A stretch of DNA of 64,000 nt from Minisyncoccota bacterium (GCA_041657385.1 JBBABZ010000001.1:15313-79312); one strand, 5' to 3'. Shown: positions 2,524 through 36,140, counted from the first letter of the stretch. A program made the numbers and translations. Notes: generated by a model from the sequence alone, not told the origin.

Positions 2524-2672
2524 TTAGCGCAAAGCGTAAAGTGCAAAGTGTAAAACAAAAGTGCAAAATTTAAAATATTCGTTTTCCAGTCGTTCGTTAT
2601 TTTTAGCTTTACGCTGTTATTTTACGCTTTTCGCTTTTAGCTTTACTCTTTCTTCCTTTGCTCTTTTCGTTT
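2524..2672. repeat. Heptamer-hairpin element, family A (AAAG units), copy A1
   Basis: The left arm is AGCGCAAAGCGTAAAGTGCAAAGTGTAAAAC, the core is TTTAAAATATTCGTT, and the right arm is TTTTAGCTTTACGCTGTTATTTTACGCTTTTCGCTTTTAGCTTTAC. Arms are period-7 and reverse-complementary. Confidence 0.8.
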
Positions 2673-2736
2673 TTTTTCAACTAAAGTATAATTAAGAAAC
2701 TAACCATAAAAATATTTCAGTTTCACGAAACTGGCA

Positions 2737-4206
2737 ATGAACTTGGAAATCCCCAAAGAAGTAAAATTTGTCCTTGATGGCTTGAAAACAAAAGGCTTTC
2801 AAGCTTATGCCGTTGGCGGCTGCGTCCGCGACATCCTAAGAGGGGAAAAACCTGCCGACTGGGATATAACGACCAATGCCGCTCCCGAGCAGATCGGTTC
2901 GATTTTTTTGGAAAGCTTCAGCAATAATAAATTCGGCACGGTTACGGTGATCGTCGAAAGCGAAGATCCGGCTTTGCGCGAAATAGAAGTTACGCCTTTC
3001 CGCACCGAACAAAACTATTCAGACAAAAGACACCCGGATGAAGTTAAATGGGCCAAAACTATCGAAGAAGACCTAAGCCGCCGGGATTTCACGGTCAATG
3101 CCTTGGCTTTGGACGAAACGGCAGGGAAGATAAGCATTATCGATCTATTCAACGGACAAAAAGACCTGCGTGATCAAATTATACGCACAGTCGGAAGCGC
3201 CGAGGAAAGATTCAACGAGGATGCCTTAAGGATGCTAAGGGCGATCCGTTTTTCCGCTACTTTGGGTGAAGACTGGAAGATCGAACCTCAAACCCAAAAA
3301 GCCATCGAATCAAACGCCCATTGGCTAAAAGCCATCTCTCAAGAAAGGATCAGCGAAGAGCTATGCAAAATAATAAAATCCAGGCAGGCGGCGCAGGGGA
3401 TAGAAACGTTAAGAATATATGGATTGCTGCAATATATCCTTCCGGAATTAATGGAAGGGTATAAAGTCGGGCAGAACAAGCACCATGTCTATGATGTTTA
3501 TGAACATTGCGTGCGCTGTTTGGACTTTACCGCCAAAAAAGATTTTAATTTCCATGTTCGGATGGCCTCTTTGCTCCACGATATCGGCAAGCCGCGTTCC
3601 AAAAGAGGGGAAGGCCTTAATTCCACTTTTTACGGCCATGATATTATCGGAGCCAAAATGTGCGCCCAAGCTTTACAGCGCTTGAAATTTTCCAAAAAAG
3701 ATAATGATAAAGTTACGCTTTTGGTCCGATACCATTTGTTTTATTACAATGTGGACGAAGTAGGGGAATCTTCCATCCGCCGCTTGGTGCGCAATGTCGG
3801 GCCGGAAAATATGGAAGAGCTATTGCAGGTCCGGATGGCCGACCGTATCGGCTCGGGCTGTCCCAAGGCAGAGCCATATAAACTAAGGCATTTGAAATAT
3901 ATCGTCGATAAAGTAGCCCAAGACCCGATCTCGGCCAAAATGCTCAAAGCCGACGGCCAAGATGTGATGAAGATATTGGAAATAAAACCCGGTCCGAAGA
4001 TCGGCGATATTTTGGATATTCTTTTGGGCATAGTTTTATTGGACCCCAAAAAAAATACCAAAAAATTCTTGGAAGGGGAGATCAAAAAATTGGGAAAAAT
4101 GTCCGATGAAGAACTGGCAGTTTTTTCCCAAAAAGCCAAAGAGGAGCGCGGCAAAACCGAAGTGAAGCGGGACGAAATGACGAAGAAGAAGTATTGGGTC
4201 ACTTAG
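2737..4206 (+). CDS. cca: CCA-adding tRNA nucleotidyltransferase with HD domain
   Basis: 489 aa. It has the PolyA-polymerase head motif GGCVRDILRGEKPADWDITT, RRDFTVNA, and an HD region (LLHDIGKP). Confidence 0.9.
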   Translation: MNLEIPKEVKFVLDGLKTKGFQAYAVGGCVRDILRGEKPADWDITTNAAPEQIGSIFLESFSNNKFGTVTVIVESEDPALREIEVTPFRTEQNYSDKRHPDEVKWAKTIEEDLSRRDFTVNALALDETAGKISIIDLFNGQKDLRDQIIRTVGSAEERFNEDALRMLRAIRFSATLGEDWKIEPQTQKAIESNAHWLKAISQERISEELCKIIKSRQAAQGIETLRIYGLLQYILPELMEGYKVGQNKHHVYDVYEHCVRCLDFTAKKDFNFHVRMASLLHDIGKPRSKRGEGLNSTFYGHDIIGAKMCAQALQRLKFSKKDNDKVTLLVRYHLFYYNVDEVGESSIRRLVRNVGPENMEELLQVRMADRIGSGCPKAEPYKLRHLKYIVDKVAQDPISAKMLKADGQDVMKILEIKPGPKIGDILDILLGIVLLDPKKNTKKFLEGEIKKLGKMSDEELAVFSQKAKEERGKTEVKRDEMTKKKYWVT

Positions 4207-4340
4207 AAGCGTAAAGTGCAAAGCGAAAAGCTTAAAGCAGCGAACGATCGTAGGACGAAAAGCGTTTGCAAACGCTTTTCGTCCTTGTTTTTAGCTTTAC
4301 GCTGTTATTTTACGCTTTTCGCTTTACACTTTACGCTTCT
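4207..4340. repeat. Heptamer-hairpin element, family A, copy A2, with a nested perfect 32-bp palindrome
   Basis: The arms are AAGCGTAAAGTGCAAAGCGAAAAGCTTAAAG and TTTTTAGCTTTACGCTGTTATTTTACGCTTTTCGCTTTACACTTTACGCTT. The centre, GGACGAAAAGCGTTTGCAAACGCTTTTCGTCC (4253-4284), is a perfect palindrome. Confidence 0.8.
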
Positions 4341-4402
4341 TGGTTTCACAAATTCCGAAAAATTTGCTAAGCTTTTAAGCGTCCTAAGAATAGAGACGTC
4401 AA

Positions 4403-4473
4403 CGGGGTGTAGTATACCGGCAGTACGTGCCCTTCGGGAGGGTAAAGACTGGGTTCAATTCCCAGCACCCCGA
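4403..4473 (+). tRNA. tRNA-Pro (anticodon CGG), CCA not encoded
   Basis: Hand-folded cloverleaf. Acceptor CGGGGTG/CACCCCG, D stem GTAT/GTAC, anticodon stem TGCCC/GGGTA with loop TTCGGGA, and T arm CTGGG-TTCAATT-CCCAG. The discriminator is A, followed by CTG. Confidence 0.85.
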
Positions 4474-5240: not shown

Positions 5241-5388
5241 CCGGCATTAATTGCTTGCAACCCCGTTTTTTTTACCAAAATAATTGCCAGCCCTTTTTAA
5301 ACCAAGATTTTTTTGATAAACTAAATAAGATTTCAACGTTGCACTTTAGTTTCAAAAAAAAGAGTAAAGGATGGCATCGCCACGCTGA

Positions 5389-5477
5389 GAGCGAAGGAGG
5401 GCTTTGCCTCGCCGTAGCTCTAGCAAGAGCGAAGGAGGGCTTTGCCTCGCCGTAGCTCTAGCAAGAGCGAAGGAGGG
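5389..5477 (+). repeat. 38-bp tandem repeat (2.3 copies) running into the 5' end of tRNA-Ala
   Basis: The unit GAGCGAAGGAGGGCTTTGCCTCGCCGTAGCTCTAGCAA starts at 5389, 5427 and 5465. The third copy diverges exactly where tRNA-Ala begins. Confidence 0.85.
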
Positions 5478-5549: not shown

Positions 5550-5551
5550 CA

Positions 5552-5662
5552 GCTGGAATTTGGAAGCTGGAATTTGGAATCTAGAATCTAGAATTTAGAA
5601 TTCGGATTCCACATTCCATATTCTAAATTCTAAATTCCAGTTTTGAATTCCAGTCTTGAATT
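5552..5662. repeat. Heptamer-hairpin element, family B (GAAT units), copy B1
   Basis: Reads CTGGAATTTGGAAGCTGGAATTTGGAATCTAGAATCTAGAATTTAGAATTCGGATTCC | ACATTCCATATTCTAAATTCTAAATTCCAGTTTTGAATTCCAGTCTTGAA. Positions 5565-5659 look identical to 6387-6481. Confidence 0.85.
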
Positions 5663-5696
5663 GGTTTTTATAAGGCCAGCTAAAAGTTAGGAGGCT

Positions 5697-6413
5697 ATGA
5701 AAACAAAATTTCTTATTGCCGCGATAATCTTAACGGCCGCCGGGGCGGTATTTTTTCTTTGGTTGGGAAAACCAGATTCTCCGCTGGCCGAGCGAATTGC
5801 GCCGGTCTGGCAGACTCTGGAACAAGGAACGGGAACAATAATAGGGGAGGATATCAAATATTCTCCAAGCCACCCGCTGGTCGAGGCGGCGAAAAAACAG
5901 ATCGGAGTTGTTACGAAATATGACACCAGCTACTATCCGGACGGATATCCGCCAACAGACCGCGGAGCGTGCACTGATGTTATAGCACGGGCTCTAAAAA
6001 CCAACGGCTATGATCTGAAAGAAAAGATCGACGCGGATATGGCAGAATATCCGGACAAATATCCGAACGCATCGGATCCGAATATCAATTTCCGTCGGGT
6101 AACGAATGTAAAAATATTTTTAGATAACCACGCGCAAAAGTTATCTACCTGCATCACATCCGAATGTTTTGCGCAAGGTCTTTGGCAAGCAGGAGACATA
6201 GTAACCTTTGACCAAATTCCGGAAAGCTTATGGCACATTGCCATTGTTTCCAATAAAACGAAAAAAAATAACAACCTCGGAGGAGCAATGGTCCCTTTTT
6301 TGGTGCATAACCACGGAGGAGGCACGGTTGAAGACAATATGCTGTTAACTTGGCCCACGCCCATCACCGGCCATTACCGGACCTCAAGCTGGAATTTGGA
6401 ATCTAGAATCTAG
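5697..6413 (+). CDS. DUF1287 domain protein with N-terminal signal/anchor
   Basis: 238 aa with an AGGAGG SD. It reads YDTSYYPDGYPPTDRGACTDVIARALKTNGYDLKEKIDADM...NINFRRVTNV, which matches my recollection of the DUF1287 family. The last codons (WNLESRI*) are encoded by repeat B2. Confidence 0.7.
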   Translation: MKTKFLIAAIILTAAGAVFFLWLGKPDSPLAERIAPVWQTLEQGTGTIIGEDIKYSPSHPLVEAAKKQIGVVTKYDTSYYPDGYPPTDRGACTDVIARALKTNGYDLKEKIDADMAEYPDKYPNASDPNINFRRVTNVKIFLDNHAQKLSTCITSECFAQGLWQAGDIVTFDQIPESLWHIAIVSNKTKKNNNLGGAMVPFLVHNHGGGTVEDNMLLTWPTPITGHYRTSSWNLESRI

Positions 6414-6487
6414 AATTTAGAATTCGGATTCCACATTCCATATTCTAAATTCTAAATTCCAGTTTTGAATTCCAGTCTTGATTCCAG
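6387..6487. repeat. Heptamer-hairpin element, family B, copy B2
   Basis: 95 bp apparently identical to B1. It overlaps the 3' end and stop codon of the DUF1287 gene. Confidence 0.85.
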
Positions 6488-6515
6488 AAATAACGGCGAG
6501 AATAAATAACTAAAA

Positions 6516-6597
6516 ACGCAAAGCAACGGCGCCTGCCTATCAACAGACAGGTAAAGTTTAAAATATCATTCGTTATTTTGCGCTTTACACTTTTTAA
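6516..6597. repeat. Heptamer-hairpin element, family A, degenerate copy A3
   Basis: Reads CGCAAAGCAACGGCGCCTGCCTATCAACAGACAGGTAAAGTTTAAAATATCATTCGTTATTTTGCGCTTTACAC. It includes a decayed version of the GC palindrome and the family core. Confidence 0.65.
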
Positions 6598-6601
6598 CTC
6601 T

Positions 6602-8042: not shown

Positions 8043-10559
8043 ATGCTTGATCTTAAAAATTCGCGGATCTCAAAAGCGATCTTCATTGAAAAATATTTCT
8101 TTCCTGGAGCGCTTGGCCCTCTAAAGACTCTTTTTGAGTTAATCTTTATATTGTTTTCAGCCTCCTACCTTAGCTATTCTTTTCTAGGTCCCATTCCATT
8201 TTCAAAAGAATCCATCTTGGGGGCCGCCTGGATATCGTTCTCTTTATGGGGATTCCTTTGGCTTTTTCTAAGCTTCTTCAGCCAAAAACTGAAAGAGCCT
8301 GCGATAAAAGAATCCGATAACTTGGCTGATTTTTTAGATCTGAACTCGGCCAAAGCCGTGACAAAAGCCATCCATTCTAAAAAATATTCTTTCAGCCTGT
8401 CTCTCTTTCTAATATTGGCGGAAATGCCCGAATTCAAACCGGCTTTTTCAAGACTTTTATTGTCTCGGGAAAAAATTTGCAAGTCTGCCCAAGAAATATG
8501 GGGAAAGGGGGAGGCTGGCGAAGGCAACCGGCTCGAAGAAGCGGAACAGGTTGTTATGTCCGCGCTTAAAATGGCGGCTTCGGAAAATTTGGAAAGAATT
8601 CCTGCTTCCCGCTTGCTGTTCGCCGTTATAGAAAGCCACCCCTTAGCCAAAAAAACTTTGTTTTCGCTCGGCATTTCTAAAAACGATATCGTGGAAACGG
8701 TCCTATGGCAAGAAAAAGCTTTGAACTCCCGAAAGATCGCAAAAAAATTCTGGCTGAAAAAAAATCTCTTGAAAGAAGACAGCATCGGCAGGCACTGGGC
8801 GGCCGGGCATACCTACTTCCTTAATCTTTACTCGCGCGATCTTGCAAATTTCAGAAAGACGCTTCCTTCTCTTGGAGTCATTCTGCATGAAAAACAAATA
8901 AAACAGCTGGAAGACGCTTTAATAGGCTCCAGCGGCGCTACTTCCGCCTTGCTGGTCGGAGAGCCAGGCGTTGGAAGAAAGATGATCTTATCCAATCTGG
9001 CAAATAAAATTTCAGAAGGGCGCAGCTACCGTCCGCTTAATTTCAACAGAATGGTCGAGATCAATATGCCTTCTTTGATAACCGCTTCCCAGAGCATTGA
9101 AGAACTCGAGGTCATTTTGAAATCAATATTCAACGAAGCGATGCGGGCTGGCAACGTCATTCTCGTCATCCGCGAGATCCATAATTACATAGGATCTCAT
9201 TTCGGGGCCAGGGATGTGGCAAAGGTCAACATTTCCGGAATACTGGCGGAATATGCCTCTCTGCCAGGGTTCCGCCTTATCGGCATCGCGACCCCCGAAG
9301 GATTCAACCGCGTTTGGCACCAAACCCAAGAAGTCCTCTCTCATTTCGCGAAAATAGAAGTGCCGCCAGCCACCCCGAAAGAAACGCTGGCAGTTTTGGA
9401 AGAAACAGCTTTGGAAATAGAAAGGCAAACGAAATTTTTGATCACTTTTCCGGCCCTTGAAGAAATAATCGAGCTTGCCGACCGTTATATTTCCGATACT
9501 CCGTTCCCCAAAAAAGCGCTGAATATTTTGGACGGAGTAATTATTTATAAAATAAGGAACGGCAGAAGGGGATCGAACTTGATCTTAAAAAAAGAAGTTG
9601 ATGCCTTGGTCTCCGAAAAGATCGAGATACCGGTAGGAGAAGCGAGTCAAAGGGAAAAAAATGTCCTGCTGAACCTGGAAGACATCATCCACCAGCGGCT
9701 CGTGGGCCAGGAAGAAGCCGTTTCCGAGATCGCTAATGCCCTGCGCCGCGCAAGGGCTGATATTAAAAACGGCAAAAGAACCTTGGGCAGTTTTCTTTTT
9801 CTGGGCCCGACCGGCGTTGGCAAGACAGAAACCGCCAAATGCCTGGCCAGAGCTTATTTCGGCTCGGAAAAAAAAATGATACGGCTCGATATGTCCGAAT
9901 ATCAAGAGATCGGTTCGATCAAAAAATTGATCGGCGACGGAGAAAACCCCGGATACTTTACGACAATGGTCAGGGAAGACCCTTTCTCCCTGATCCTGCT
10001 TGATGAAATTGAAAAGGCCCATCCAAATATCTTAGATCTCTTCCTGCAGATCTTGGACGAAGGACGATCAACCGACGGATCGGGCCGGACCGTTGATTTC
10101 CGAAACACCATTATCATCGCGACCTCGAACGCGGGGGCGGAATTGGTGAGAAACGCCGTTAGAAAAGGTAAAAATCTATCCGAATACAAGCAGGAATTCA
10201 TCGATGAAGTCCTGAAAAAGGGGCTTTTCAGACCGGAATTCCTGAACAGGTTCGATGCGATCGTTCTGTTCCGAACCCTCACGAAAGAACACCTTCAAAA
10301 AATCGCCCGGCTTATGCTTGAAGAGATAAAAAACGGCCTCGACCAAAAGGGAATAGACCTCGCGATCACTTCGGAGCTGGTTGAAAAAATGGCCGAGATC
10401 GGATTTTATCCCGAATTCGGAGCAAGAGAAATGCGAAGGGTCATCCAAGAAAAAGTTGAGAATAGCATTGCCAAAGCAATGTTATCCGGAAACCTCAAAA
10501 CCAGCGACAGCATAAAGATAGACCCCGAAACATTCAAAATACTGGAATCTAGAATTTAG
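8043..10559 (+). CDS. Clp/Hsp100-family double AAA+ ATPase with N-terminal transmembrane segments
   Basis: 838 aa. D2 is canonical (LFLGPTGVGKTETAK, LILLDEIEKAH, the sensor region and ATSN). D1 reads GEPGVGRKM and VILVIREIH. The N-terminal ~80 aa are hydrophobic. The last codons (ILESRI*) come from repeat B3. Confidence 0.8.
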   Translation: MLDLKNSRISKAIFIEKYFFPGALGPLKTLFELIFILFSASYLSYSFLGPIPFSKESILGAAWISFSLWGFLWLFLSFFSQKLKEPAIKESDNLADFLDLNSAKAVTKAIHSKKYSFSLSLFLILAEMPEFKPAFSRLLLSREKICKSAQEIWGKGEAGEGNRLEEAEQVVMSALKMAASENLERIPASRLLFAVIESHPLAKKTLFSLGISKNDIVETVLWQEKALNSRKIAKKFWLKKNLLKEDSIGRHWAAGHTYFLNLYSRDLANFRKTLPSLGVILHEKQIKQLEDALIGSSGATSALLVGEPGVGRKMILSNLANKISEGRSYRPLNFNRMVEINMPSLITASQSIEELEVILKSIFNEAMRAGNVILVIREIHNYIGSHFGARDVAKVNISGILAEYASLPGFRLIGIATPEGFNRVWHQTQEVLSHFAKIEVPPATPKETLAVLEETALEIERQTKFLITFPALEEIIELADRYISDTPFPKKALNILDGVIIYKIRNGRRGSNLILKKEVDALVSEKIEIPVGEASQREKNVLLNLEDIIHQRLVGQEEAVSEIANALRRARADIKNGKRTLGSFLFLGPTGVGKTETAKCLARAYFGSEKKMIRLDMSEYQEIGSIKKLIGDGENPGYFTTMVREDPFSLILLDEIEKAHPNILDLFLQILDEGRSTDGSGRTVDFRNTIIIATSNAGAELVRNAVRKGKNLSEYKQEFIDEVLKKGLFRPEFLNRFDAIVLFRTLTKEHLQKIARLMLEEIKNGLDQKGIDLAITSELVEKMAEIGFYPEFGAREMRRVIQEKVENSIAKAMLSGNLKTSDSIKIDPETFKILESRI

Positions 10560-10675
10560 AATTTGGAATTTGGAATACGGATTCAAGACTGGAATTTGGA
10601 ATCTAGAATTTAGAATTTAGAATTCGGATTCCACATTCCATATTCTAAATTCCAGATTCCAAATTCCAGATTCCA
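10541..10675. repeat. Heptamer-hairpin element, family B, copy B3
   Basis: Reads CTGGAATCTAGAATTTAGAATTTGGAATTTGGAATACGGATTCAAGACTGGAATTTGGAATCTAGAATTTAGAATTTAGAATTCGGATTCCACATTCCATATTCTAAATTCCAGATTCCAAATTCCAGATTCCAG. Confidence 0.85.
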
Positions 10676-10680
10676 GCAGA

Positions 10681-11259: not shown

Positions 11260-11267
11260 AGCGATAA

Positions 11268-11398
11268 AAGCGTAAAGCTAAAAGCGTAAAGCTAAAAGCG
11301 AAAAGTGTAAAGCAGCGAACGGATATTTTAAACTTTACCTGCCTACCGGCAGGCAGGCGCTGTTGTTTTGCGCTTTTCGCTTTACACTTTACGCTTTA
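11268..11398. repeat. Heptamer-hairpin element, family A, copy A4, with GC palindrome
   Basis: The left arm is AAAGCGT AAAGCTA AAAGCGT AAAGCTA AAAGCGA AAAGTGT AAAGCAG (exact period 7). The core is CGAACGGATATTTTAA and the palindrome is CCTGCCTACCGGCAGGCAGG (11339-11358). The right arm is TTTTGCGCTTTTCGCTTTACACTTTACGCTTT. Confidence 0.9.
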
Positions 11399-11427
11399 TT
11401 TATTTTGTTAAAAAATATCTCCGATAT

Positions 11428-12941: not shown

Positions 12942-13018
12942 TACGCTTGCCCGGTTGGAAGCCCTTCCGACCCCTGGCAAGAACAAAAGCTAAACTTAAC
13001 CCGTCAAATACAAAAACT

Positions 13019-13678
13019 ATGGACATTCAACAATACATTTTGCAAGCGCAAGCTCTTTTCGACCAAAGGCTTTCTTTCAGGATTGCGGCGGCGGTTTTCT
13101 TCTTCTTGATCGGCTGGGCCTTTTCTTGCTGGCTTGAAAAAAAATTGTCGCGAGTTTTGGAAAAGACAAATCTCAACAACCTGGCCAAAGGAAGCCAATT
13201 AAATGACGCGCTGGTTAAAAAAAATATCAGCATCAATCTTCCCAAATTCTTGGGCAAAATCCTTAAGTGGTCCCTTTTACTGGTAACCCTGATGATCTCG
13301 ACCGACATCGTGGATCTGCAACAAGTCAGCGGATTTTTAGTTTCTATGATAAAATTCCTGCCAAACATTTACATCTCCCTCTTTATTTTCTTCGTCGCCC
13401 TTTTCGCAGAAAACTTTTCCCGAAAGATCATCGTCGGCAATATTGAAGACGAAAAACTTGTTTATTCCAAAATTTTAGGAGAGGTTCTCAGATTTTCCAT
13501 CCGGGTTCTTGCTGTTTTGGCAATTCTATACCAGCTGAACATAGCCCAAGCTTTGGTATTAAGCATTTTCATCGCTTTTCTGGCCACCTTGGCTTTGGCC
13601 ATCGGCATTTCTTTCGGCATCGGCGGCAAAGATCTGGCCAAGAAAATTTTGGATGAAATTAAAAACAAGCTTTCCTAA
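13019..13678 (+). CDS. Membrane protein with conserved-TM-helix repeats (small mechanosensitive-channel-related?)
   Basis: The internal ATG at 13019 gives MDIQQYILQAQALFDQRLSFRIAAAVFFFLIGW. The region upstream of this ATG in the track ORF covers the promoter and hairpin. Several TM helices are present. Confidence 0.55.
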   Translation: MDIQQYILQAQALFDQRLSFRIAAAVFFFLIGWAFSCWLEKKLSRVLEKTNLNNLAKGSQLNDALVKKNISINLPKFLGKILKWSLLLVTLMISTDIVDLQQVSGFLVSMIKFLPNIYISLFIFFVALFAENFSRKIIVGNIEDEKLVYSKILGEVLRFSIRVLAVLAILYQLNIAQALVLSIFIAFLATLALAIGISFGIGGKDLAKKILDEIKNKLS

Positions 13679-23648: not shown

Positions 23649-25184
23649 ATGCCAAAAATAAAAAAAATATTGATCGCCAACAGGGGAGAGGTGGCCCTGC
23701 GGGTCATCCGAACCTGCAAAGAGATGGGGATCAAAACGGTCGCCCTTTGCCCGATGCCGGGCCAGGAAAAATTCTTTTTGGAAACAAAATTAGCCGATGA
23801 ATATCGATTTTTAAATAAAGAAGGGGCTCAAGGCTATCTAGATGCCAAAAAAATCGTCGAAATAGCGAAAGAGGCAGAAGCCGACGCTATCCATCCGGGC
23901 TATGGCTTCCTTTCCGAAAATTGGAAATTCGCCGAACTTTGCCAAAAAAATAAGATCACCTTCATTGGGCCCAGTCCGGCAATTTTGAAAATTTTTGAGG
24001 ATAAGATCAAGGCTAAAAAATTCGCCAAGCTTGCGGGCCTGCCCACCTTGCCGGCCAGCGCCGGGTCTGTCAAAACCCAAAAAGATCTTATGAAATGGGC
24101 GGAAAAGATCGGCTCTCCTTTTGTTCTCAAAGCCCAGCGCGGCGGCGGGGGGATCGGCATAAGAATTATTGATGGAAAAATCACAGTGAACCAAATCTCC
24201 GAGATCTCTTCCGATATCCAAAGACAGATGTCGGTTTCTTTTGCTGACGCCGATTTCTTTTTGGAAAAATATCTGACCGAAGCCAAGCATATTGAATTTC
24301 AAATTCTAGGCGACGGAAAAAATTTCGTCCATCTGGGAGAAAGGGAATGCACCATCCAAAGAAGATTTCAAAAATTGCTGGAGGAAGCCCCGTCTTCTTT
24401 TCTTGATGAAAAATTAAGGAATAAAATGGGAAGCTTGGCGGTCGGCCTCGCCAAAAAATTAGGATATAAGGGCGCCGCCACGGTGGAATTTTTGATAGAT
24501 AAAAACAAAAATTTTTATTTTATGGAGGTCAATCCGCGGCTTCAAGTAGAGCACCCGATCACCGAAGCCATTACCGGAGTTGATATCGTAGCCCAGCAGA
24601 TAAAGATCAGCCAAGGCGAAGAGCTGGATTTCAAGCAAAAAGATATCCGCTTGAACGGCTGGGCTATAGAGGCCAGGATCAACGCCGAAGATCCCCAAAA
24701 AAAATTCCAGCCCGGGCCGGGCACGGTGCAAAAATACCTGCCGCCGGGAGGCCAGGGAATTTTTATGCATACCTTTTTGCAGCAAGGCCAGAAGATATAT
24801 CCTCATTTTGACTCAATGCTGGCCAAGCTGATCGCCTGCGGCAAAACCCGCCAAGAGGCTATTTCCAGGCTCAACCGCGCCTTGGACGAATTGGTCATAG
24901 AAGGAGTACCCACTACCGCTTCGTTCTTTAAAATCGTCCTCGCGGACAAATGTTTTCTAGGGGGAGATTTTTTTACTAATTTTATTGAACGGGAAGAGAT
25001 CGTTCAAAAACTTGCCGAAGGGCCGGCCCAGATCATCTGCGATTCTTGCGACCTAGACGAAGAAGACATCGCCCAGATCATTTTTCAGGTTTATCAAAAA
25101 ATGAAAAAAGAAAAAAAGACCGGATCACCGCAAAAAATTTCCAACTGGATCTTGTCCCAAAGGCTGAAAATGCTGGACAATTAG
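23649..25184 (+). CDS. accC: Biotin carboxylase subunit of an acyl-CoA carboxylase
   Basis: 511 aa. It reads KILIANRGEVALRVIRTCKEMGI, HPGYGFLSEN, the ATP-grasp segment ERECTIQRRFQKLLEEAP, and MEVNPRLQVEHPITE. Confidence 0.9.
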   Translation: MPKIKKILIANRGEVALRVIRTCKEMGIKTVALCPMPGQEKFFLETKLADEYRFLNKEGAQGYLDAKKIVEIAKEAEADAIHPGYGFLSENWKFAELCQKNKITFIGPSPAILKIFEDKIKAKKFAKLAGLPTLPASAGSVKTQKDLMKWAEKIGSPFVLKAQRGGGGIGIRIIDGKITVNQISEISSDIQRQMSVSFADADFFLEKYLTEAKHIEFQILGDGKNFVHLGERECTIQRRFQKLLEEAPSSFLDEKLRNKMGSLAVGLAKKLGYKGAATVEFLIDKNKNFYFMEVNPRLQVEHPITEAITGVDIVAQQIKISQGEELDFKQKDIRLNGWAIEARINAEDPQKKFQPGPGTVQKYLPPGGQGIFMHTFLQQGQKIYPHFDSMLAKLIACGKTRQEAISRLNRALDELVIEGVPTTASFFKIVLADKCFLGGDFFTNFIEREEIVQKLAEGPAQIICDSCDLDEEDIAQIIFQVYQKMKKEKKTGSPQKISNWILSQRLKMLDN

Positions 25185-25185
25185 C

Positions 25186-25621
25186 TAAATCAAATGTCAA
25201 ATCTCAAAAGTCAAAACCACAGCTTAAATCCTAAAAACGAACTAAAATTTCGCCGTTATCGCTTTTCCATTGATATTATCAATGCCAGCAAAGATTTCCC
25301 GAAAGAACGGACATTTGATATTATCGCCAAACAGTTGCTAAGAAGTTCTACCAGTATAGGCGCGAATATTGTTGAGGTAAAATCTTCAAGCTCCCGCAGG
25401 GATTTTATTAAATTTTATGAAATCGCTCTAAAATCCGCTAATGAAACAAAATATTGGCTTGGACTTTTAAGAGATGGTTTGAATTTTGACGGAGAAAAAA
25501 TAAATATATTCTTGGCTGAAGACGATGAGATATCAAAAATGATCGCCGCGAGCCTAATCACATTAAAAGGTAAAAGGCTTTAATCTATATGGTTTTGAGA
25601 TTTGACTTTTGAGTTTTGAAA
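25186..25621 (+). repeat. Heptamer-hairpin element family C (TCAAAA units), copy C1, carrying an ORF in its loop (IVS-like)
   Basis: The left arm is AAATCAAATGTCAAATCTCAAAAGTCAAAACCACAGC (25188-25224). The right arm is GGTTTTGAGATTTGACTTTTGAGTTTTGAAA (25591-25621). TCAAAACC pairs with GGTTTTGA, then arms match 5 of every 7 nt. Confidence 0.8.
25194..25583 (+). CDS. Four-helix-bundle protein (23S rRNA intervening-sequence protein family)
   Basis: 129 aa. It reads AKQLLRSSTSIGANIVEVKSSSSRRDFIKFYEIALKSANETKYWLGLL, matching the family signature (QL.RS..SI.ANI.EG...S..DF..F..IA.GS..E....L). The start codon and first ~14 codons lie in the repeat arm. Confidence 0.8.
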   Translation: MSNLKSQNHSLNPKNELKFRRYRFSIDIINASKDFPKERTFDIIAKQLLRSSTSIGANIVEVKSSSSRRDFIKFYEIALKSANETKYWLGLLRDGLNFDGEKINIFLAEDDEISKMIAASLITLKGKRL

Positions 25622-25628
25622 TAAGCTT

Positions 25629-26003
25629 ATGAAAATAAAGATCAAAGATAAAATTTACGATATTGAGATTTCCGAATCGCAAGAGGGGATCGTTATGATC
25701 AAGGTTAATGATCAAAATTTTGTTTTCCAAGAAAAAAACACTGTTAAAAATATACCGATCAAAGGGTCTAATGAAAGCGCGAAAATAGCTAAAAAAGAAA
25801 TTAGGGCGCCGATAACGGGAACTATTTCCAAAATTTTTACCAAAGAAGGAGAGATGATCGAACCGGGACAGAAAATTTTAAGCCTTTCGGCCATGAAAAT
25901 GGAAAACGAAATAATTTCCGAAGGCAAAGGCAAGATTAAAAAAATCAATGTAAAGGAAGGGCAGCTGGTAAAGGCGAATGAGCTGCTGGCAGAACTTGAA
26001 TAA
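25629..26003 (+). CDS. accB: Biotin carboxyl carrier protein (short form)
   Basis: 124 aa. It has a biotinyl-lysine motif (LSAMKMENEI) in a lipoyl/biotinyl fold C-terminus. Confidence 0.85.
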   Translation: MKIKIKDKIYDIEISESQEGIVMIKVNDQNFVFQEKNTVKNIPIKGSNESAKIAKKEIRAPITGTISKIFTKEGEMIEPGQKILSLSAMKMENEIISEGKGKIKKINVKEGQLVKANELLAELE

Positions 26004-26005
26004 CT

Positions 26006-26158
26006 GCGTAAATTTTCAATTTACAATTCTCAATTTTCCTGCCTACCGGCAGGCAGGCAATGAATGTTTCAATTTTCAAAAATTCCGTTATCGTCATTGA
26101 AGCATTGGAACATTGTAATTTCATTGGAAATTGAAAATTGTAAATTAAAAATTCACGC
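26006..26158. repeat. Heptamer-hairpin element family D (CAATTTT units), copy D1, with GC palindrome
   Basis: The left arm is GCGTAAATTTTCAATTTACAATTCTCAATTTTC. The palindrome is CCTGCCTACCGGCAGGCAGG (26038-26057). The right arm is GAAATTGAAAATTGTAAATTAAAAATTCACGC. Confidence 0.85.
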
Positions 26159-26160
26159 TT

Positions 26161-26691
26161 ATGATCATAAAATCATTCTCTCAGCTAGATTCTACCAACA
26201 CCAAGGCCAAAGAGCTCGCCCAAAACGGCGCCGCGCCTTGGACTGTTGTCATTGCCGATGAACAAACCAACGGTTATGGCAAAGACCAGCGCGGCTGGTT
26301 TTCTCCAAAAGGCGGCCTTTATTTTTCCATCATCCTTCCTGAAAGCAATATCGACGACCTTCAAACGCTAACCATTTTAGCGGCTTTTGCAGCGGCAAAA
26401 ACAATAATGGAAGAATTCAATTTGCAAACTTTTATCAAGCTGCCGAACGATGTCTGGACGAACAATAAAAAAATAGCGGGCATCCTGACCGAAAACATCA
26501 TTTCCGGAAAAAAAATAAAACATTCGGTCATGGGCATAGGCCTCGATACCAATATTGAAAAATTCCCAAAAGAGTTGGCAAGTATCGCCACTTCGCTTAG
26601 AATAGAGCTAGGCAGGGAAGTGGACGATAAAGACCTAATGGAAAAGATAGTAGGAGAACTTAAAAAACAGTTAGAGACGATAAGCAGATAA
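26161..26691 (+). CDS. birA: Biotin--[acetyl-CoA-carboxylase] ligase, catalytic domain only
   Basis: 176 aa. It reads LDSTNTKAKELA, QTNGYGKDQRGWFSPKGGLYFS and NDVWTNNKKIAGILTE. There is no N-terminal HTH. Confidence 0.85.
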   Translation: MIIKSFSQLDSTNTKAKELAQNGAAPWTVVIADEQTNGYGKDQRGWFSPKGGLYFSIILPESNIDDLQTLTILAAFAAAKTIMEEFNLQTFIKLPNDVWTNNKKIAGILTENIISGKKIKHSVMGIGLDTNIEKFPKELASIATSLRIELGREVDDKDLMEKIVGELKKQLETISR

Positions 26692-26695
26692 ATGG

Positions 26696-26824
26696 CTCAA
26701 AAATCAAATCTCAAAATTCAAAACCACAACTAAAAACCAAAAAGCTAAGCGTTATTTAATAAATTATAAAAAGTTAAAAAGTTTTAAATTATAGTTTTGA
26801 GCTTTGACTTTTAAGTTTTGAATT
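26696..26824. repeat. Heptamer-hairpin element family C, copy C2 (ORF-less)
   Basis: The left arm is CTCAAAAATCAAATCTCAAAATTCAAAACCACAAC and the right arm is AGTTTTGAGCTTTGACTTTTAAGTTTTGAATT. The 67-nt loop retains sequence resembling both ends of the C1 insert. Confidence 0.8.
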
Positions 26825-26832
26825 AGAATACT

Positions 26833-28371
26833 ATGTCTTTTGAAAAACAGATCAAAAAACTAAATGAGGAGATCGCGGCGCTCGACAGTCCGGAGATGGC
26901 TGCCAAACAGCACCAAAAAGGAAAGCTGACGGCGCGGGAAAGGATCGGCATCCTCTTAGACAAAGATAGTTTCGTTGAACTTAATCCATTCGTCCAATCC
27001 CGCTTCAATGATTATGGAATGGACCAAAAAAAATTTCCAGGAGACGCGGTGGTCTCCGGTTTTGGCAAGATCAACGGACGGCAAGTCTGCGTCTACAGCC
27101 AGGACTTTTCTAAAATCGGCGGTTCTTTGGGAGAAATGCACGGCCAAAAAATAATTAACGCCATAAAAATGGCCAGGCAAACCGGCTGCCCGACGATCGG
27201 GATCATCGACAGCGGAGGCGCCCGCATCCAAGAAGGAATAGCCAGCCTTGACGGCTATGCCGGAATTTTCAGGGAGATGGTCAAGGCTTCCGGCATTATT
27301 CCTCAAATTTCAATTATCCTGGGCCCTTCAGCCGGCGGAGCTTCTTACGCCCCCGGACTTTCCGACTTTATTTTTATGGTTGAAGGAATTTCTCAAATGT
27401 ATATCACCGGGCCGGAAGTGATAAAATCCGTAACCGGGGAAAATATTTCTTTTAATGATCTTGGCGGAGCTTCAGTCCACTCTTTGCAAAGCGGATGCGC
27501 CCATTTCGTCTCCCAAAATGAAAACGAATGTTTGGAAGGCGTTAAAAAACTTTTGGGTTATCTGCCGCAAAATAATTTGGAAAATCCTCCGGCTAAAAAC
27601 TCTTTCGGCACGGCCGATCTCTGTCCTAAACTCCTGGAAATAGTACCGGAAGAAGAAGGGAAGGGATACGACATGAAAGAAGTGGTTAAGGAAATTTTCG
27701 ATCTTGATTCTTTTTTTGAAGTCCAAGCCGGATTCGCCCCCAACTCTATTGCCGGCTTTGCCCGCTTAGGAGGGCAAACCGTCGGCATCGCGGCCAATCA
27801 GACCAAATCAATGGCCGGAACCCTGGACGTCAATTCTTCGGATAAGATCGCTAGATTTGTCCGGCTTTGCGATGCTTTTAACATCCCCATCATCAATTTG
27901 ATCGATACCCCCGGATATCTTCCCGGCACCGACCAGGAGCACAAAGGCATTATCCGGCACGGCGCTAAAATCCTGTATGCTTATGCCGAAGCCAGCGTTC
28001 CCAAGATCAGTCTTATTTTAAGAAAAGCCTTCGGCGGAGCCTATATCGCCCTGGCTTCCAAAGAGCTGGGATATGACAAAGTCATTGCCTGGCCTTCCGC
28101 CCAGATCGGAGTGATGGGTCCGAAACAAGCGGTAAAAATAATTTTCCACAGAGAATTGGAAAACAGCCAGGACCCGGACAGGCTTGAAAAAGAAAAAATC
28201 CTCGAACTGTCCGAAACTTTTTTGAGCCCGTGGCAAGCGGCCCGGCTAGGAAAATTAGATTTGATCATCGATCCCCAAGAAACCCGGTCCGTATTATTCA
28301 AACTGCTGGAATCCCTGCTCAACAAACGCGAAAGCAAAGCCCCTAGAAAGCACGGTAATATTCCTCTATAA
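26833..28371 (+). CDS. Acyl-CoA carboxylase carboxyltransferase subunit (PccB/AccD5-like, fused alpha+beta CT)
   Basis: 512 aa. It reads GKLTARERI, GDAVVSGFGKINGRQV, IDSGGARIQEG and AFGGAYIA, typical of propionyl/acetyl-CoA carboxyltransferases. Confidence 0.85.
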   Translation: MSFEKQIKKLNEEIAALDSPEMAAKQHQKGKLTARERIGILLDKDSFVELNPFVQSRFNDYGMDQKKFPGDAVVSGFGKINGRQVCVYSQDFSKIGGSLGEMHGQKIINAIKMARQTGCPTIGIIDSGGARIQEGIASLDGYAGIFREMVKASGIIPQISIILGPSAGGASYAPGLSDFIFMVEGISQMYITGPEVIKSVTGENISFNDLGGASVHSLQSGCAHFVSQNENECLEGVKKLLGYLPQNNLENPPAKNSFGTADLCPKLLEIVPEEEGKGYDMKEVVKEIFDLDSFFEVQAGFAPNSIAGFARLGGQTVGIAANQTKSMAGTLDVNSSDKIARFVRLCDAFNIPIINLIDTPGYLPGTDQEHKGIIRHGAKILYAYAEASVPKISLILRKAFGGAYIALASKELGYDKVIAWPSAQIGVMGPKQAVKIIFHRELENSQDPDRLEKEKILELSETFLSPWQAARLGKLDLIIDPQETRSVLFKLLESLLNKRESKAPRKHGNIPL

Positions 28372-28380
28372 TATCAATAT

Positions 28381-29250
28381 ATGACAAAGATCAGCCTTAT
28401 TGTCGGCCAAAGCGCTTCTCTGCCAAAACAAATAATGGAAAGATATTCTCTGACCATGATCCCTTTTATTGTTGATTGGAAAGCCGATAAGGATAACCTT
28501 GACCCGAAAAGCATTTTTCAAAAAATGGCCGATGCCGAAGCTGGCAATGCAAGCGATCTTCCTAAAACATCCCATCCCGCGCCATGGCTCTTCAAGAAAT
28601 TTTTTGAAGAAAAAATTACAAATTCCGATTCGGTTCTTTTTATTTCTCTAAGCTCGAAGCTGTCAGCCACTTCCGAGGCCGCCTCATTTGGAAAAGAAAT
28701 GCTGAAACCGGGAGATAAAAAAAAGGTTTTTATTTTCGATTGCCAAAATGCCAGCGCCGGAGAAGGCTTGATCGCAATTAAAGTTGCGGAGCTGATCAGT
28801 CAAGGCAGGCCGGTTGAGGAGGCTGTTAAAGAGCTGGAAATATTCAGACAAAAAGTCTGCACCTTGGCCAGCCTTAAAGATTTGAAATGGCTGGAAAAAG
28901 GAGGAAGGATAAGCCATTTAACCAAATCAATATTATCCACTTTCCAAAAACTAGGGATCAGCCTTCTTTTCGGGATTAAAAACGGCCGCGTTGAAGCTGT
29001 TAGCTTGGGTTTTAAACAAAAAACTCAAGCCGCGGTTATTTTCGATTTTTTCAAAAAAAACTGCAAAAAGGGGAAATTCCGAATTGCCATAGCTCACGCT
29101 CAAAACGAGCAGGCCGCAGACGAACTTAAAAATTTGATCCAAAAAAAATGTCCCTCATCTGAAATAATTTTCACCGGGCCGATCGATAATATTATTGGAA
29201 TACATGTCGGACCAGGCGCCCTGATTTGCGCCTGGCATCCGCTAGACTAA
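28381..29250 (+). CDS. DegV-family fatty-acid-binding protein (FakB-like)
   Basis: 289 aa. It reads LPKTSHPAP, SLSSKLSATSEAA and IIGIHVGPGALICAW. Confidence 0.85.
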   Translation: MTKISLIVGQSASLPKQIMERYSLTMIPFIVDWKADKDNLDPKSIFQKMADAEAGNASDLPKTSHPAPWLFKKFFEEKITNSDSVLFISLSSKLSATSEAASFGKEMLKPGDKKKVFIFDCQNASAGEGLIAIKVAELISQGRPVEEAVKELEIFRQKVCTLASLKDLKWLEKGGRISHLTKSILSTFQKLGISLLFGIKNGRVEAVSLGFKQKTQAAVIFDFFKKNCKKGKFRIAIAHAQNEQAADELKNLIQKKCPSSEIIFTGPIDNIIGIHVGPGALICAWHPLD

Positions 29251-29254
29251 TACA

Positions 29255-29935
29255 ATGCCCGCTTCTTATTTTTTAATATCCCTTTTCTCTTACCTGCTCG
29301 GTTCAATACCGGCCGCTATTTTAATTGGAAAACTTTTCACCAAGAAAAATTTTCAAGAAGAGGGAAGCGGCAATCTTGGCGCCACCAACGCTTTAAGAAT
29401 CGTCAGCAAAGAAAAAGGGAAATTCTGGGGAACCGCGGCCTTTCTTGCCGTTTTTCTTTTTGACGCCAGCAAAGCAGTGGCCGCTTGTTTGATCGCAACG
29501 AACTTTATTCCCGATCGGACCGCAGCTTTAACTCTGGCCGCCTTTTTTACCGTTCTTGGCCATAATTATTCATTGTTTTTAAAATTCCGGGGAGGGAGGG
29601 GAGCTGCTTCCTTGCTTGGCGTCCTCTTATTTTTCGATTGGCGCGTCTTTTTAGCTTGGGTTGGAACTTTTTTGGCCGTAGCCGTTATCTTTGAGGCTGT
29701 TGAAAGCAAAAAAATCGACAAAAAAATAGTGGCCAGAGCCGCTAACCGCCAAATTATCGGCCGTCTTGTTGGAGAGGTCTTAGCCCTTATTCCCATCTAC
29801 CTTCTCAATCAAACTCTTTTTTGGCCAACCCTTTTCGCTACGCCATTGATCCTTATCAAACATAAAGAAAGGGTGAAAAGACAGTTGCAAGAGATAGCTG
29901 AAAGCGTAAAGCTAAAAGCGCAAAGCGTAAAGTAA
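29255..29935 (+). CDS. plsY: Glycerol-3-phosphate acyltransferase PlsY (acyl-phosphate dependent)
   Basis: 226 aa. It reads YLLGSIP and GSGNLGATNALR. The last ~11 codons (ESVKLKAQSVK*) are encoded by repeat A8. Confidence 0.85.
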   Translation: MPASYFLISLFSYLLGSIPAAILIGKLFTKKNFQEEGSGNLGATNALRIVSKEKGKFWGTAAFLAVFLFDASKAVAACLIATNFIPDRTAALTLAAFFTVLGHNYSLFLKFRGGRGAASLLGVLLFFDWRVFLAWVGTFLAVAVIFEAVESKKIDKKIVARAANRQIIGRLVGEVLALIPIYLLNQTLFWPTLFATPLILIKHKERVKRQLQEIAESVKLKAQSVK

Positions 29936-30063
29936 CAGCGCCTGCCTGCCGGTAGGCAGGTAAAGCTAAAAGCAACGAACGGATATTTTTAGCTTTACGC
30001 TTTTGTTTTGCGCTTTTCGCTTTGCACTTTACGCTTCCTTGCTTTACGCTTCCTTACGCTTTT
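29900..30063. repeat. Heptamer-hairpin element, family A, copy A8, with GC palindrome
   Basis: Reads GAAAGCGTAAAGCTAAAAGCGCAAAGCGTAAAGTAACAGCG + CCTGCCTGCCGGTAGGCAGG (29941-29960) + TAAAGCTAAAAGCAACGAACGGATATTTTTAGCTTTACGCTTTTGTTTTGCGCTTTTCGCTTTGCACTTTACGCTTCCTTGCTTTACGCTT. Confidence 0.9.
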
Positions 30064-35591: not shown

Positions 35592-35685
35592 ACAATCATC
35601 TTTCGTAAAAATCTTAATCAGACTTTTAATTTTAATAATTTTAGGGGCAATAACAGCTGCGGCGGTATTTTTATTTAAAAAATAA
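35584..35685 (+). CDS. Possible 33-aa single-pass membrane peptide overlapping the upstream stop (ATGGCTAA)
   Basis: It reads MAKQSSFVKILIRLLILIILGAITAAAVFLFKK. Its start overlaps the stop codon of 33900..35591, and it is below the track cutoff. Confidence 0.3.
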   Translation: MAKQSSFVKILIRLLILIILGAITAAAVFLFKK

Positions 35686-35715
35686 TCCAAGCTGGCATTT
35701 TGTTCCAACTGTAAA

Positions 35716-36075
35716 ATGGCAAATAAGGAATTCTTAGAAAAAATAAAATCGGAACTTGAACAGAAAAAAGATGCTTTGAGAAAAGAACTAAGCGGTTTTG
35801 CCAATGAAAGCCCGGGGGACAAAAAAGATTGGAACGCCCGCTACCCGCAATTTGAGGGGAGCGGACTGGAAGACGAAGCCGACGAGGTGGAAGAATACGG
35901 AAGTCTTCTTTCGATCGAGAAGATCATGGAAAAAAAGCTCAAAGATATCGACGCCGCGCTGGAAAAGATCGAAAAAAATACTTACGGCATCTGCGAAAAA
36001 TGCGGCGTGGAAATTTCCCAAGCCAGGCTGGAAGTCTGCCCGGAAGCCCGATGGTGCTCTAGCTGTATTCAATAA
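35716..36075 (+). CDS. DksA/TraR-family C4 zinc-finger protein
   Basis: 119 aa with a coiled-coil N-terminus and a C-terminal YGICEKCGVEISQARLEVCPEARWCSSC. Confidence 0.75.
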   Translation: MANKEFLEKIKSELEQKKDALRKELSGFANESPGDKKDWNARYPQFEGSGLEDEADEVEEYGSLLSIEKIMEKKLKDIDAALEKIEKNTYGICEKCGVEISQARLEVCPEARWCSSCIQ

Positions 36076-36107
36076 ATTTTTATATCTAACCTTACCCGCA
36101 AAAAGGT

Positions 36108-36140
36108 TTGAAAATTAAAAATTGAAAATTAAAAATTTTT
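36108..36140. repeat. Half-copy of heptamer element family D, D3
   Basis: It reads TTGAAAATTAAAAATTGAAAATTAAAAATTTTT, with period-7 units. Confidence 0.55.

Follow-up and report, generated by a model that had tools for sequence, protein, structure and literature searches.

Introduction

Since 1990 tandem heptamers have served to fingerprint cyanobacteria, although their presence has never been explained. Mazel and colleagues reportedly described them in 1990 as short tandemly repeated repetitive (STRR) heptanucleotides, three kinds of which, STRR1-3 with the units CCCCAGT, TTGGTCA and CAACAGT, are said to occur in heterocystous cyanobacteria, and Elhai and colleagues reportedly found in 2008 that small dispersed repeats (SDR) of 21-27 nt are nested in the heptamer arrays of Nostoc. 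The 23S rRNA intervening sequence (IVS) proteins of family PF05635 (hereafter IVP), which are four-helix-bundle proteins, are abundant across bacteria, and no function is known for them outside diversity-generating retroelements (DGRs). Here we analyse intergenic hairpins with arms of tandem degenerate heptamers, one of which encloses a PF05635 gene, in a 64,000-nt stretch of DNA from a Minisyncoccota bacterium (GCA_041657385.1, JBBABZ010000001.1:15313-79312), a member of the Candidate Phyla Radiation (CPR). This whole stretch, about 64 kb of the host genome, is called the window.

Heptamer repeats with the unit TAACTGA occur in Beggiatoaceae, Cyanobacteria and Bacteroidetes, with one inverted set among 170 (PMC4679880). 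IVS elements with an S23p/PF05635 open reading frame (ORF) are known from the 23S rRNA of Leptospira, Coxiella and Xanthomonas, and the 28-bp terminal stem of the Coxiella element is cleaved in its middle by RNase III in vitro (PMC4990558). The same paper cites the IVS of Leptospira and Salmonella as RNase III precedents, and also the intercistronic RNase III sites of phage T7 (Dunn & Studier 1973, cited in PMC4990558). IVP ORFs have also been found in rRNA insertions of CPR bacteria (PMC11270868), and PF05635 has a relative in Avd, an accessory protein of DGRs and a partner of reverse transcriptase (PMC10053308).

Results

The heptad hairpins of the window are repeated, recently inserted and decaying palindromic cassettes that occur across phyla, and they are inserted beside tRNA genes and at intercistronic junctions that measure 1-4 nt in relatives. 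The complete form is represented by element C1, which lies between accC and accB (Table 1). A first-pass annotation of the window had listed C1 as a small hairpin and overlooked that its arms enclose a 129-aa gene of the PF05635 family (23S_rRNA_IVP; E 8.6e-23; 81 bits, the cut-off being 33.8). The ATG start codon of this gene lies inside the 5' arm, the arms form a 30-nt inverted repeat with 80% complementarity (I25), and the nearest solved relative of the protein is an uncharacterised one (PDB 2RLD, E 3e-17). The ends of C1, including the 3' tail of its ORF, are matched by C2 at 120 of 131 aligned positions. C2 is an internal-deletion derivative of a C1-type cassette, to which it stands as a miniature inverted-repeat transposable element (MITE) stands to its parent.

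The association of IVP genes with heptad arms is not peculiar to the window. In a set of 80 metagenomic loci, chosen by IVP protein alignment only and with usable flanks in 71 cases, the 5' and 3' flanks were complementary (z >= 4) around 64 of the 71 PF05635 genes, a period-7 array was present in a flank of 50 (periods 5, 6, 8 and 9 combined gave 5), and both features coincided in 47. The IVP gene shares the strand of its upstream neighbour in 62/66 cases and that of its downstream neighbour in 58/68, a co-orientation that points to dependence on transcription; a tRNA gene occurs within the 1.5-kb flanks at 3/60 IVP loci. Cultured organisms show the same arrangement. In a tblastn search of plasmids, 34 records, including 19 from Nostoc, proved to carry IVP homologues, and all 12 inspected genes carry heptamer arrays on both flanks, with complementary units in most. 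The 5' and 3' units are (AATTCGT)4 (AATTTGG)7 and (TTACGAA)4 in Dolichospermum, (AATTCGT)4 and (TTACGAA)4 in Nostoc flagelliforme, (AATTCGC)4 and (TTGCGAA)4 in Nostoc sp. N6, GTCGGAG-type and CTCCGAC-type in N. punctiforme, AATCCCC / AATCGTA and CGATTTA in Planktothrix, TTTTAGA and TCTAAAA in Gloeocapsa, ACCAGTG-type and (CACTGGT)12 in Euhalothece, and (TAGTGAT)15 and ATCACTA in Bernardetia. Four cases are less clean: Chondrinema carries heptad-like arrays on either side of the gene; in Treponema, which likewise has such arrays on both sides, those nearest the gene share one orientation and complementary GGAAAG-type units lie further upstream; in Chlorohelix both flanks carry GGATTTT/TAGATTT-type units, mainly in the same orientation, with complementary AATCCAAAATC units nearby; and in Anabaena AAGTAAA-type units lie in the same orientation on both flanks, with complementary CTTTTTACTTTTTAC units further downstream. 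In a 50-kb stretch of the N. punctiforme plasmid pNPUN01, 7 arrays have period 7, whereas period 4 gives 2 and periods 5-6 and 8-11 give none, and 5 of the 7 flank the two four-helix-bundle (IVP) genes annotated there. The window elements are therefore a CPR instance of STRR- and TAACTGA-type repeats. On cyanobacterial and Chloroflexota plasmids, IVP cassettes also lie inside defence operons (L175, L178, L180 and L183), where they separate drmD from an MmeI-type restriction-modification gene, a DUF1156 gene from a Swt1-HEPN gene (twice) and cas2 from cas1.

The arm sequence itself is shared across phyla. The family-A arm 22-mer CTTTTCGCTTTRCRCTTTRCRC, for which about one match is expected by chance in the 596-Gb genome collection searched, was matched in 81 stretches, from Omnitrophota (~34), many CPR classes (~28), Bacteroidota, Planctomycetia, Acidobacteria, Gemmatimonadota and others; with regard to a possible phage carrier, only 3 viral contigs contain it. 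All seven IVP ORFs that an iterated hidden Markov model detected in these loci and the window lie between heptad arms, one of the seven cassettes using the unrelated unit GATGAGT/ACTCATC. In a folding test, family-A arms elsewhere paired with an upstream partner within 220 nt in 36/78 cases against 12/78 with shuffled upstream sequence, and a stricter left-arm search in other genomes found a partner for 21/80 arms. Among the matched loci, four CPR metagenome-assembled genomes (MAGs; L004:7275-7296, L008:4313-4334, L038:6651-6672 and L056:4350-4371) have a single family-A-type array (GYGTAAAGTGYAAAGCGAAAAG) 2-3 nt 5' of the ATG of one and the same small Zn-ribbon protein (MKDAKEVEMKGKGG...CPxCG), after a conserved GSATATT, which looks like a conserved use of a heptad array in a 5' untranslated region. 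In an Omnitrophica MAG (L033:1877-1898) the 22-mer abuts the apparent middle of a FolC/Mur-ligase-like coding sequence, which suggests an in-gene insertion or a split gene.

Insertion is apparent from comparison with four syntenic fatty-acid-synthesis operons, L085 to L088, whose FabZ-FabK is 91, 87, 79 and 77% identical to that of the window, L085 being the closest relative and L087 and L088 two more distant ones. Most operon genes in L087 and L088 are 0-10 nt apart (for example taa-AAAT-atg), while in the window, L085 and L086 inserts of 50-444 nt fill the stop-to-start interval exactly. The FabZK-FabK junction holds a family-A element (A7) in the window, an AAATCC/TCAAA-type hairpin in L085, a D-type hairpin with the palindrome described below in L086, and 1 and 10 nt in L087 and L088. 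Likewise, the BPL-AccAD junction holds C2 in the window, a D copy almost identical to the BCCP-BPL copy of the same genome in L085, an AAAATGN-type hairpin in L086, 3 nt in L087 and 65 nt without an array in L088, and the AccC-BCCP junction holds the 444-nt IVP cassette in the window against 4, 52, 4 and 1 nt in L085 to L088. The gap between the OCD and FabZ-FabK genes that A6 fills measures 55 nt in L085 and 2 nt in L087. Family-D copies at three junctions in three genomes retain 74% mean column identity when aligned, and arrays become sparser from the window (4.1 per 10 kb) through L085 (3.3) and L086 (0.5) to L087 and L088 (0 in both). Decay is visible at the FakA-DegV to thiolase junction, where L085 and L086 have elements of 157-161 nt and where the spacer at 15588 in the window opens with the same AAATCAAAA; such "half copies" are collapsed remnants of full elements. 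The lone array at 19305-19336 is similar to the 3' arm of the hairpin at the FabZK-FabK junction in L085. The first-pass annotation had expected presence/absence polymorphism at orthologous loci if the elements were mobile, and this is what the sister genomes show: the filled junctions of the window are 1-4 nt long or occupied by a different family. Of its three proposals (transcript punctuation, processing or mobility), these polymorphic junctions uphold mobility, while punctuation and processing are inferred. Neither strand has a G·U-tolerant RNA signature.

The arrays themselves stand far above background. A three-unit scan of the window, which called an array at >=16/21 matches at lag k, found 26 arrays at period 7; the remaining periods from 4 to 12 gave 4, 1, 0, 0, 0, 0, 0 and 0, and 20 Markov shuffles yielded a mean of 0.2 period-7 arrays. 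Sliding 42-nt windows with >=0.75 identity numbered 93 at lag 7 and 30 at lag 14, a multiple of 7, with none at lags 3-13 other than 7 and none at any lag in the Markov shuffles. Tandem Repeats Finder (TRF) recovers the same arrays, often with super-periods of 14 and 21 nt. All 26 arrays are intergenic and lie within 2525-36141, every copy being situated between protein or tRNA genes, and an inverted-repeat search of the window shows that they occur as inverted pairs. The contig sequence was assembled independently in three samples, and the elements are identical wherever these assemblies overlap the window (0 differences in the covered elements among the three near-identical assemblies, examined for strain-level variation), so that an assembly artefact does not account for them. 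The period-7 signal and the four sequence families of one architecture (A-D) that the first-pass annotation had described are thus confirmed, the families at the positions that it gave, but its list of at least 17 sites is incomplete, heptads being present at 17287-17330 and 19305-19336 as well. The same detector finds no heptad elements from 36 to 64 kb, and the earlier suggestion of a genome-wide system draws no support from these ~64 kb of the genome. This last part of the window (36200-64000) has several gaps of 150-450 nt without heptad arrays, and classical GC-stem/T-run terminators stand at 45918, 50695 and 55567, where no heptad elements occur.

Folding supports the hairpin architecture, as had been proposed. 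Against dinucleotide shuffles, 10/13 short elements fold with z-scores from -5.1 to -11.2, the weak folders being A1, the partial A3 and C2. The predicted stems are near-continuous over 32-60 bp. The earlier picture of stems with five paired and two unpaired positions per heptad has to be abandoned, since the variable heptad positions are mirrored between the 5' and 3' arms, making these true inverted repeats with almost unbroken stems.

Alignment shows that family A, whose eight copies had been located correctly, is not a set of independent arrays but a homologous element of ~125 nt in which the heptad variants follow a fixed order and the loop core is asymmetric, its consensus reading AAGCGTAAAGCTAAAAGCGAAAAGCGTAAAATAACAG..AAAGC.AAAA..A.CGAACG.ATATTTTAAACTTTGCGCTGTTGTTTTGCGCTTTTCGCTTTACACTTT.CGCTT. 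The core CGAACGRATATTTT is exact at 11316+, 19150+, 20395-, 22029+ and 29976+ and degenerate or interrupted in A1, A2 and A3. Five exact copies, one of them on the minus strand, bear out the polarity that a conserved asymmetric core in both orientations had suggested. In A2 the core is truncated and mostly replaced by a nested 32-nt perfect hairpin (4253-4284, GGACGAAAAGCGTTTGCAAACGCTTTTCGTCC), which is a third kind of nested insert.

A further nested insert is the perfect 20-nt palindrome CCTGCCTRCCGGYAGGCAGG, of which the window has five copies where 0 are expected. It occurs at three places of the family-A alignment, each time splitting a CTTTA/CGC heptad or its complement, and in D1 it lies at 26038-26057 between CAATTTT and CAATGAATG; the L085 orthologue of D1 has no palindrome at that position, and there is no target duplication. 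The palindrome also occurs in heptad arms of Omnitrophota MAGs. CCTGCCTRCCGGYAGGCAGG is a separate element that has been inserted into several heptad elements.

Table 1. Heptad elements and arrays of the window (positions counted from its first nucleotide; z, folding z-score; I, inverted repeat).
Element	Position	Strand	Features
A1	2524-2660	-	Arrays 2525-2555 and 2621-2652; arms degenerate; core in minus orientation, split by 13-nt insertion at 2572-2598; z -2.1
A2	4207-4340	+	CCA/poly(A)-polymerase gene to tRNA-Pro; fold -71.5 kcal/mol, z -9.5; I3
A3, partial	6512-6598	-	Variant 20-nt palindrome 6532-6551; z -1.7
A4	11264-11400	+	Between two minus-strand genes; palindrome 11338-11357 in 3' arm, site TTTA^CGC; z -7.1
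A5	19113-19222	+	Palindrome 19199-19218 in outermost 3' heptad; z -6.2
A6	20336-20466	-	Fills OCD to FabZ-FabK gap; z -5.1; I1
A7	21970-22072	+	Fills FabZ-FabK to FabK gap; z -5.4
A8	29896-30056	+	Palindrome 29941-29960 in 5' arm, site GCG^TAAA; PlsY ORF ends in 5' arm at 29935; promoter-like site for tRNA-Arg after A8; z -6.4
B1	5551-5665		Units NNGGAAT / ATTCCNN; arrays 5553-5610 and 5603-5643; begins 2 nt past tRNA-Ala; z -6.6
B2	6385-6490		~95% identical to B1 and B3; DUF1287 ORF runs into 5' arm, stop at 6413; z -9.2
B3	10541-10680		Duplicated 5' arm and one 3' arm; between convergent genes; ClpB-like ORF terminates within it at 10559; fold -63.3 kcal/mol, z -11.2; TRF 47-nt period; I2, I4, I5
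C1, full-length cassette	25185-25628	+	Arms 25187-25218 and 25591-25622 around ORF 25194-25583
C2	26692-26832	+	Both arms and last ~20 nt of IVP ORF retained; z -0.9 (+ strand); minus-strand fold -30.1 kcal/mol
D1	26004-26160		Units CAATTTN / NAAATTG; accB to biotin ligase gene; z -5.7; I15
Collapsed D-type half copy	15588-15621	+	34 nt; fills FakA-DegV to thiolase gap
D-type heptads	17287-17330	+	Split by palindrome 17298-17317; directly 5' of DUF362 gene
Lone 3'-arm-like array	19305-19336	+	Units TTTGGAT / TTAGGAT; just 5' of OCD gene; TRF 19304-19333
Lone D-type 3'-arm array	36106-36141	+	5' of Mg-chelatase-like (ComM-type) gene; last array in window

Several other features of the window deserve mention. 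This Paceibacterota (CPR) genome has a near-complete fatty-acid/phospholipid gene cluster (12947-29935), which comprises a FakA-DegV fusion, a thiolase-like gene, FabG, a FabZ-FabK fusion, FabK, PlsC, AccC, BCCP, biotin ligase, a fused AccA/D, DegV and PlsY. CPR bacteria are usually described as being without lipid synthesis; at E <= 1e-30 there are 7868 homologues of the FabZ-FabK fusion, many of them labelled Paceibacterota. A tandem repeat with a perfect 38-nt unit (5388-5477; 2.4 copies, 100% identity) extends into the 5' end of tRNA-Ala; this unit (...GGAGGGCTTTGCCTCGCCGTAG...) resembles the start of that tRNA, GGAGGGGCCTGTAG, a related motif, GCCTCGCCGTAG...GAAGGCGGG, is found at 60401-60461, and CCGCCGTAGCC..GCGAAGGCGG hairpins lie in the loops of Omnitrophota elements. 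Past the 3' end of the NusA gene, 31-nt repeats (895-1031, 2.4 copies) rich in the palindromic motif TGTCGCGC/GCGCGACA are followed by a GC-stem hairpin; they may represent an operator or an iteron, or else a further family of repeats.

Discussion

Why heptamers should be arranged as inverted pairs around IVP genes and, without a gene, at the junctions of an operon is probably best explained if the heptad hairpins are selfish palindromic cassettes of the IVS type, distributed across phyla together with MITE-like derivatives, co-transcribed with their hosts and likely cut by RNase III. The full-length form consists of two inverted arms of ~4-7 heptamers (~43 nt each) that enclose a PF05635 gene without a promoter, and the window holds one full-length cassette (C1), one deletion derivative (C2), ~12 gene-less hairpins of three other families, and remnants. 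The promoter-less IVP gene is the only cargo and runs in the sense direction of the host operons, most copies being without it, and the elements would be co-transcribed with the host operon. In the transcript a 30-60-bp stem may form that, by analogy with rRNA-borne IVS carrying the same gene, would be cut by RNase III, thereby neutralising the insert at the RNA level and splitting the operon into processed segments with stem-capped ends. Such RNA-level neutralisation would explain why tight operon junctions tolerate inserts. Gene-less copies would presumably rely on functions supplied in trans.

Several results weigh against this explanation. The minimum free energy is alike on both strands, so that there is no RNA-specific signature; the arm mismatches on the sense strand include 90 of the G·U type and 85 of the A·C type (p = 0.76), and the majority, 295, are transversions. 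Strand-specific RNA selection was dropped as an idea on the grounds of this equal folding and these equal mismatch counts. Left arms, moreover, pair equally well with their own right arm and with that of another copy, which rules out copy-specific compensatory evolution of the arms and indicates that pairing stems from a palindromic family consensus. In the absence of an RNA-specific signature the complementarity could reside at the DNA level, as terminal inverted repeats, and need not reflect a selected RNA stem; the missing wobble bias and the strand-symmetric folding make the RNA-level argument weaker and speak rather for an origin of the arm symmetry in DNA. None of 20 sampled IVP cassettes lies inside an rRNA gene, and the RNase III analogy is therefore an extrapolation to mRNA. 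With respect to mobility, no convincing target-site duplication was found between filled and empty junctions, whose flanks are diverged and AT-rich, and the elements and their immediate surroundings encode no transposase, no recombinase and no reverse transcriptase. In the window no copy of family A, B or D bears an ORF. Family-A arms around IVP genes were seen only in other genomes, no more than about half of all family-A arms in other genomes find a partner within 220 nt, and family B has no copy elsewhere in the ~0.9 Mb of fetched loci.

It is possible, if rather doubtful, that the association goes further and that PF05635/Avd-like genes together with inverted heptamer arrays constitute an unrecognised, transposase-less class of mobile cassettes found across phyla, in which the IVP would recognise the arms and promote their spread. 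Since PF05635 is kin to Avd, which works with a reverse transcriptase, RNA-mediated insertion is conceivable, albeit unsupported here; a possible route, by analogy with Avd and reverse transcriptase in DGRs, would be reverse transcription of a self-priming hairpin RNA excised by RNase III. If this were true, STRR heptamers, TAACTGA repeats and the CPR hairpins would be the arms or footprints of one system.

Alternatively, the hairpins might be regulatory RNAs that benefit the host and are selected rather than selfish, for example intercistronic processing or stabiliser sites, attenuators or stop-start coupling devices. The elements do fill the stop-to-start interval exactly, often ending 1-15 nt 5' of the next ATG, their stems are long and stable, a lone family-A-type array precedes the same Zn-ribbon gene in four CPR genomes, and MacGregor proposed a similar role for TAACTGA repeats (PMC4679880). 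However, the same operon works without hairpins in L087 and L088, where junctions measure 1-4 nt, and unrelated families occupy the same junction in sister genomes. Given also that the transcribed strand shows no G·U bias, that gene-less family-A copies lie in either orientation and that elements decay by internal deletion, we consider a host-serving role unlikely. The idea that period 7 places stop codons in all three frames was likewise rejected, because the worst-frame first stop comes after 75 nt, as compared with 71 nt in shuffled sequence. Binding of the units by HutP-, CsrA- or Csp-like proteins was considered as well and set aside.

The lack of wobble bias and the strand-symmetric complementarity would fit arrays that act as DNA, as binding sites for the IVP or for a nucleoid or replication factor, in which case the inverted arrangement would stem from cruciforms or from hairpins in single-stranded DNA and RNA folding would be irrelevant. 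This is also where the 14- and 21-nt super-periods could find a meaning, 21 bp being close to two helical turns (a correspondence that is only suggestive), where it would make sense that units vary between cassettes while the two arms of each stay complementary, and where the five chains deposited for each of the solved homologues 2RLD and 2GSC might be relevant. Yet the IVP has no recognised DNA-binding motif, and its strong co-orientation with neighbouring genes argues for a dependence on transcription, so that we regard a purely DNA-level role as very unlikely, with the reservation that it overlaps the selfish-cassette explanation, since the cassettes could owe their mobility to just such binding. 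That the arrays are microsatellite-like products of slippage in AT-rich spacers, with their inversion incidental, is hardly credible and largely refuted. Slippage does act on the arms, as seen in the perfect cyanobacterial tandems (AATTCGT)4 and (CACTGGT)12 and in the unequal unit number of the two arms, but it accounts neither for an enrichment confined to period 7 nor for complementary arms in 64/71 cassettes, the fixed variant order and asymmetric core of the ~125-nt family-A unit, identical 22-mers across phyla, or copies of one family at different loci.

The tight physical link between PF05635 and heptamers provides one testable model, a selfish heptad-armed cassette with gene-less derivatives, for two old puzzles. 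The elements also show that in small, tightly packed CPR genomes the junctions of an essential-looking lipid operon tolerate palindromic inserts of 100-440 nt, which bears on translation and transcript processing in these bacteria. Since host ORFs read into the arms, the elements bear on gene calling, and since identical repeats are shared across phyla, they bear on binning and assembly.

How do the window elements compare with described systems? With Rfam gathering and E-value thresholds only tRNAs pass, the elements matching miRNA-precursor models far below threshold, in agreement with the first-pass annotation, which did not recognise in them CRISPR (clustered regularly interspaced short palindromic repeats), repetitive extragenic palindromic (REP) sequences or bacterial interspersed mosaic elements (BIMEs). 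CRISPR was rejected because the units are 7 nt, contiguous and arranged in inverted pairs rather than being 24-48-nt repeats with unique spacers of similar length. REP, BIME and REPIN were rejected because the heptad-array arms have no GTAG/CGTC head and differ from a 20-40-nt imperfect palindrome, and no REP-associated tyrosine (Y1) transposase (RAYT) was found among the proteins scanned in the 64 kb. Intrinsic terminators were set aside as well, since the elements lie within the operon and are not terminator-like sites, except for the palindrome at 17298. The nested palindrome has a parallel in the SDR reported from Nostoc: it sits inside heptad arms, is variably present and leaves no target duplication. 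It appears to differ from the SDR in sequence, and it differs in the phyla concerned (CPR and Omnitrophota).

The design, which the first-pass annotation could not assign to a known family, has precedents both in STRR/TAACTGA heptamer repeats and in stem-flanked PF05635 IVS elements (PMC4990558). With the heptamer repeats (PMC4679880) the window elements share intergenic 7-nt tandem units that often lie a few nucleotides 5' of a start codon, a diversity of unit sequences, a patchy cross-phylum spread suggestive of horizontal transfer, and an unexplained function. They differ in that the repeats are treated as direct repeats in the searched text, which draws no link to PF05635 or to hairpin pairs (PMC4679880), and in that the window units are degenerate, follow a fixed order and reside in a CPR host. 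The units AAAGCGN, GGAATNT, TCAAANN and CAATTTN are not those of STRR1-3, although CAACAGT occurs once in a family-A inner arm. With the 23S rRNA IVS, C1 has in common a size of 0.4 kb, complementary stem-forming ends and a PF05635 ORF in the loop, and IVS are likewise regarded as selfish, horizontally spread elements. Unlike these IVS, which occupy helix 25 or 45, the window elements lie between protein genes or beside tRNAs, have arms of tandem heptamers (the IVS papers examined mention no heptads) and are mostly without an ORF.

As with MITEs and REPINs, which are mobile palindromic DNA of a non-autonomous kind (PMC3116915), there are gene-less copies of 100-160 nt with inverted arms, several families, intergenic dispersal, insertion polymorphism at orthologous sites (junctions of 1-4 nt against 100-444 nt) and an ORF-bearing parent shortened by internal deletion (C2); in contrast to both, the parent encodes only PF05635, with no known transposase or RAYT, and its arms are built of heptads. 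The T7 RNase III sites, which are hairpins between the cistrons of a polycistronic RNA that are cut without harm to expression, serve as a working analogy only, since they are short, unique, host-exploiting and non-repeated and have no heptads (PMC4990558). The literature searched contained no published link between PF05635 and heptamer repeats, which does not prove novelty. Descriptions already exist of heptamer repeats, of IVS elements and of small nested palindromes, and the finding is therefore not categorically new. What appears to be undescribed is the arrangement of such arrays as paired hairpins, their role as a shell around PF05635 cassettes outside rRNA, the MITE-like gene-less derivatives of these cassettes, and the colonisation of operon junctions in CPR bacteria and Omnitrophota.

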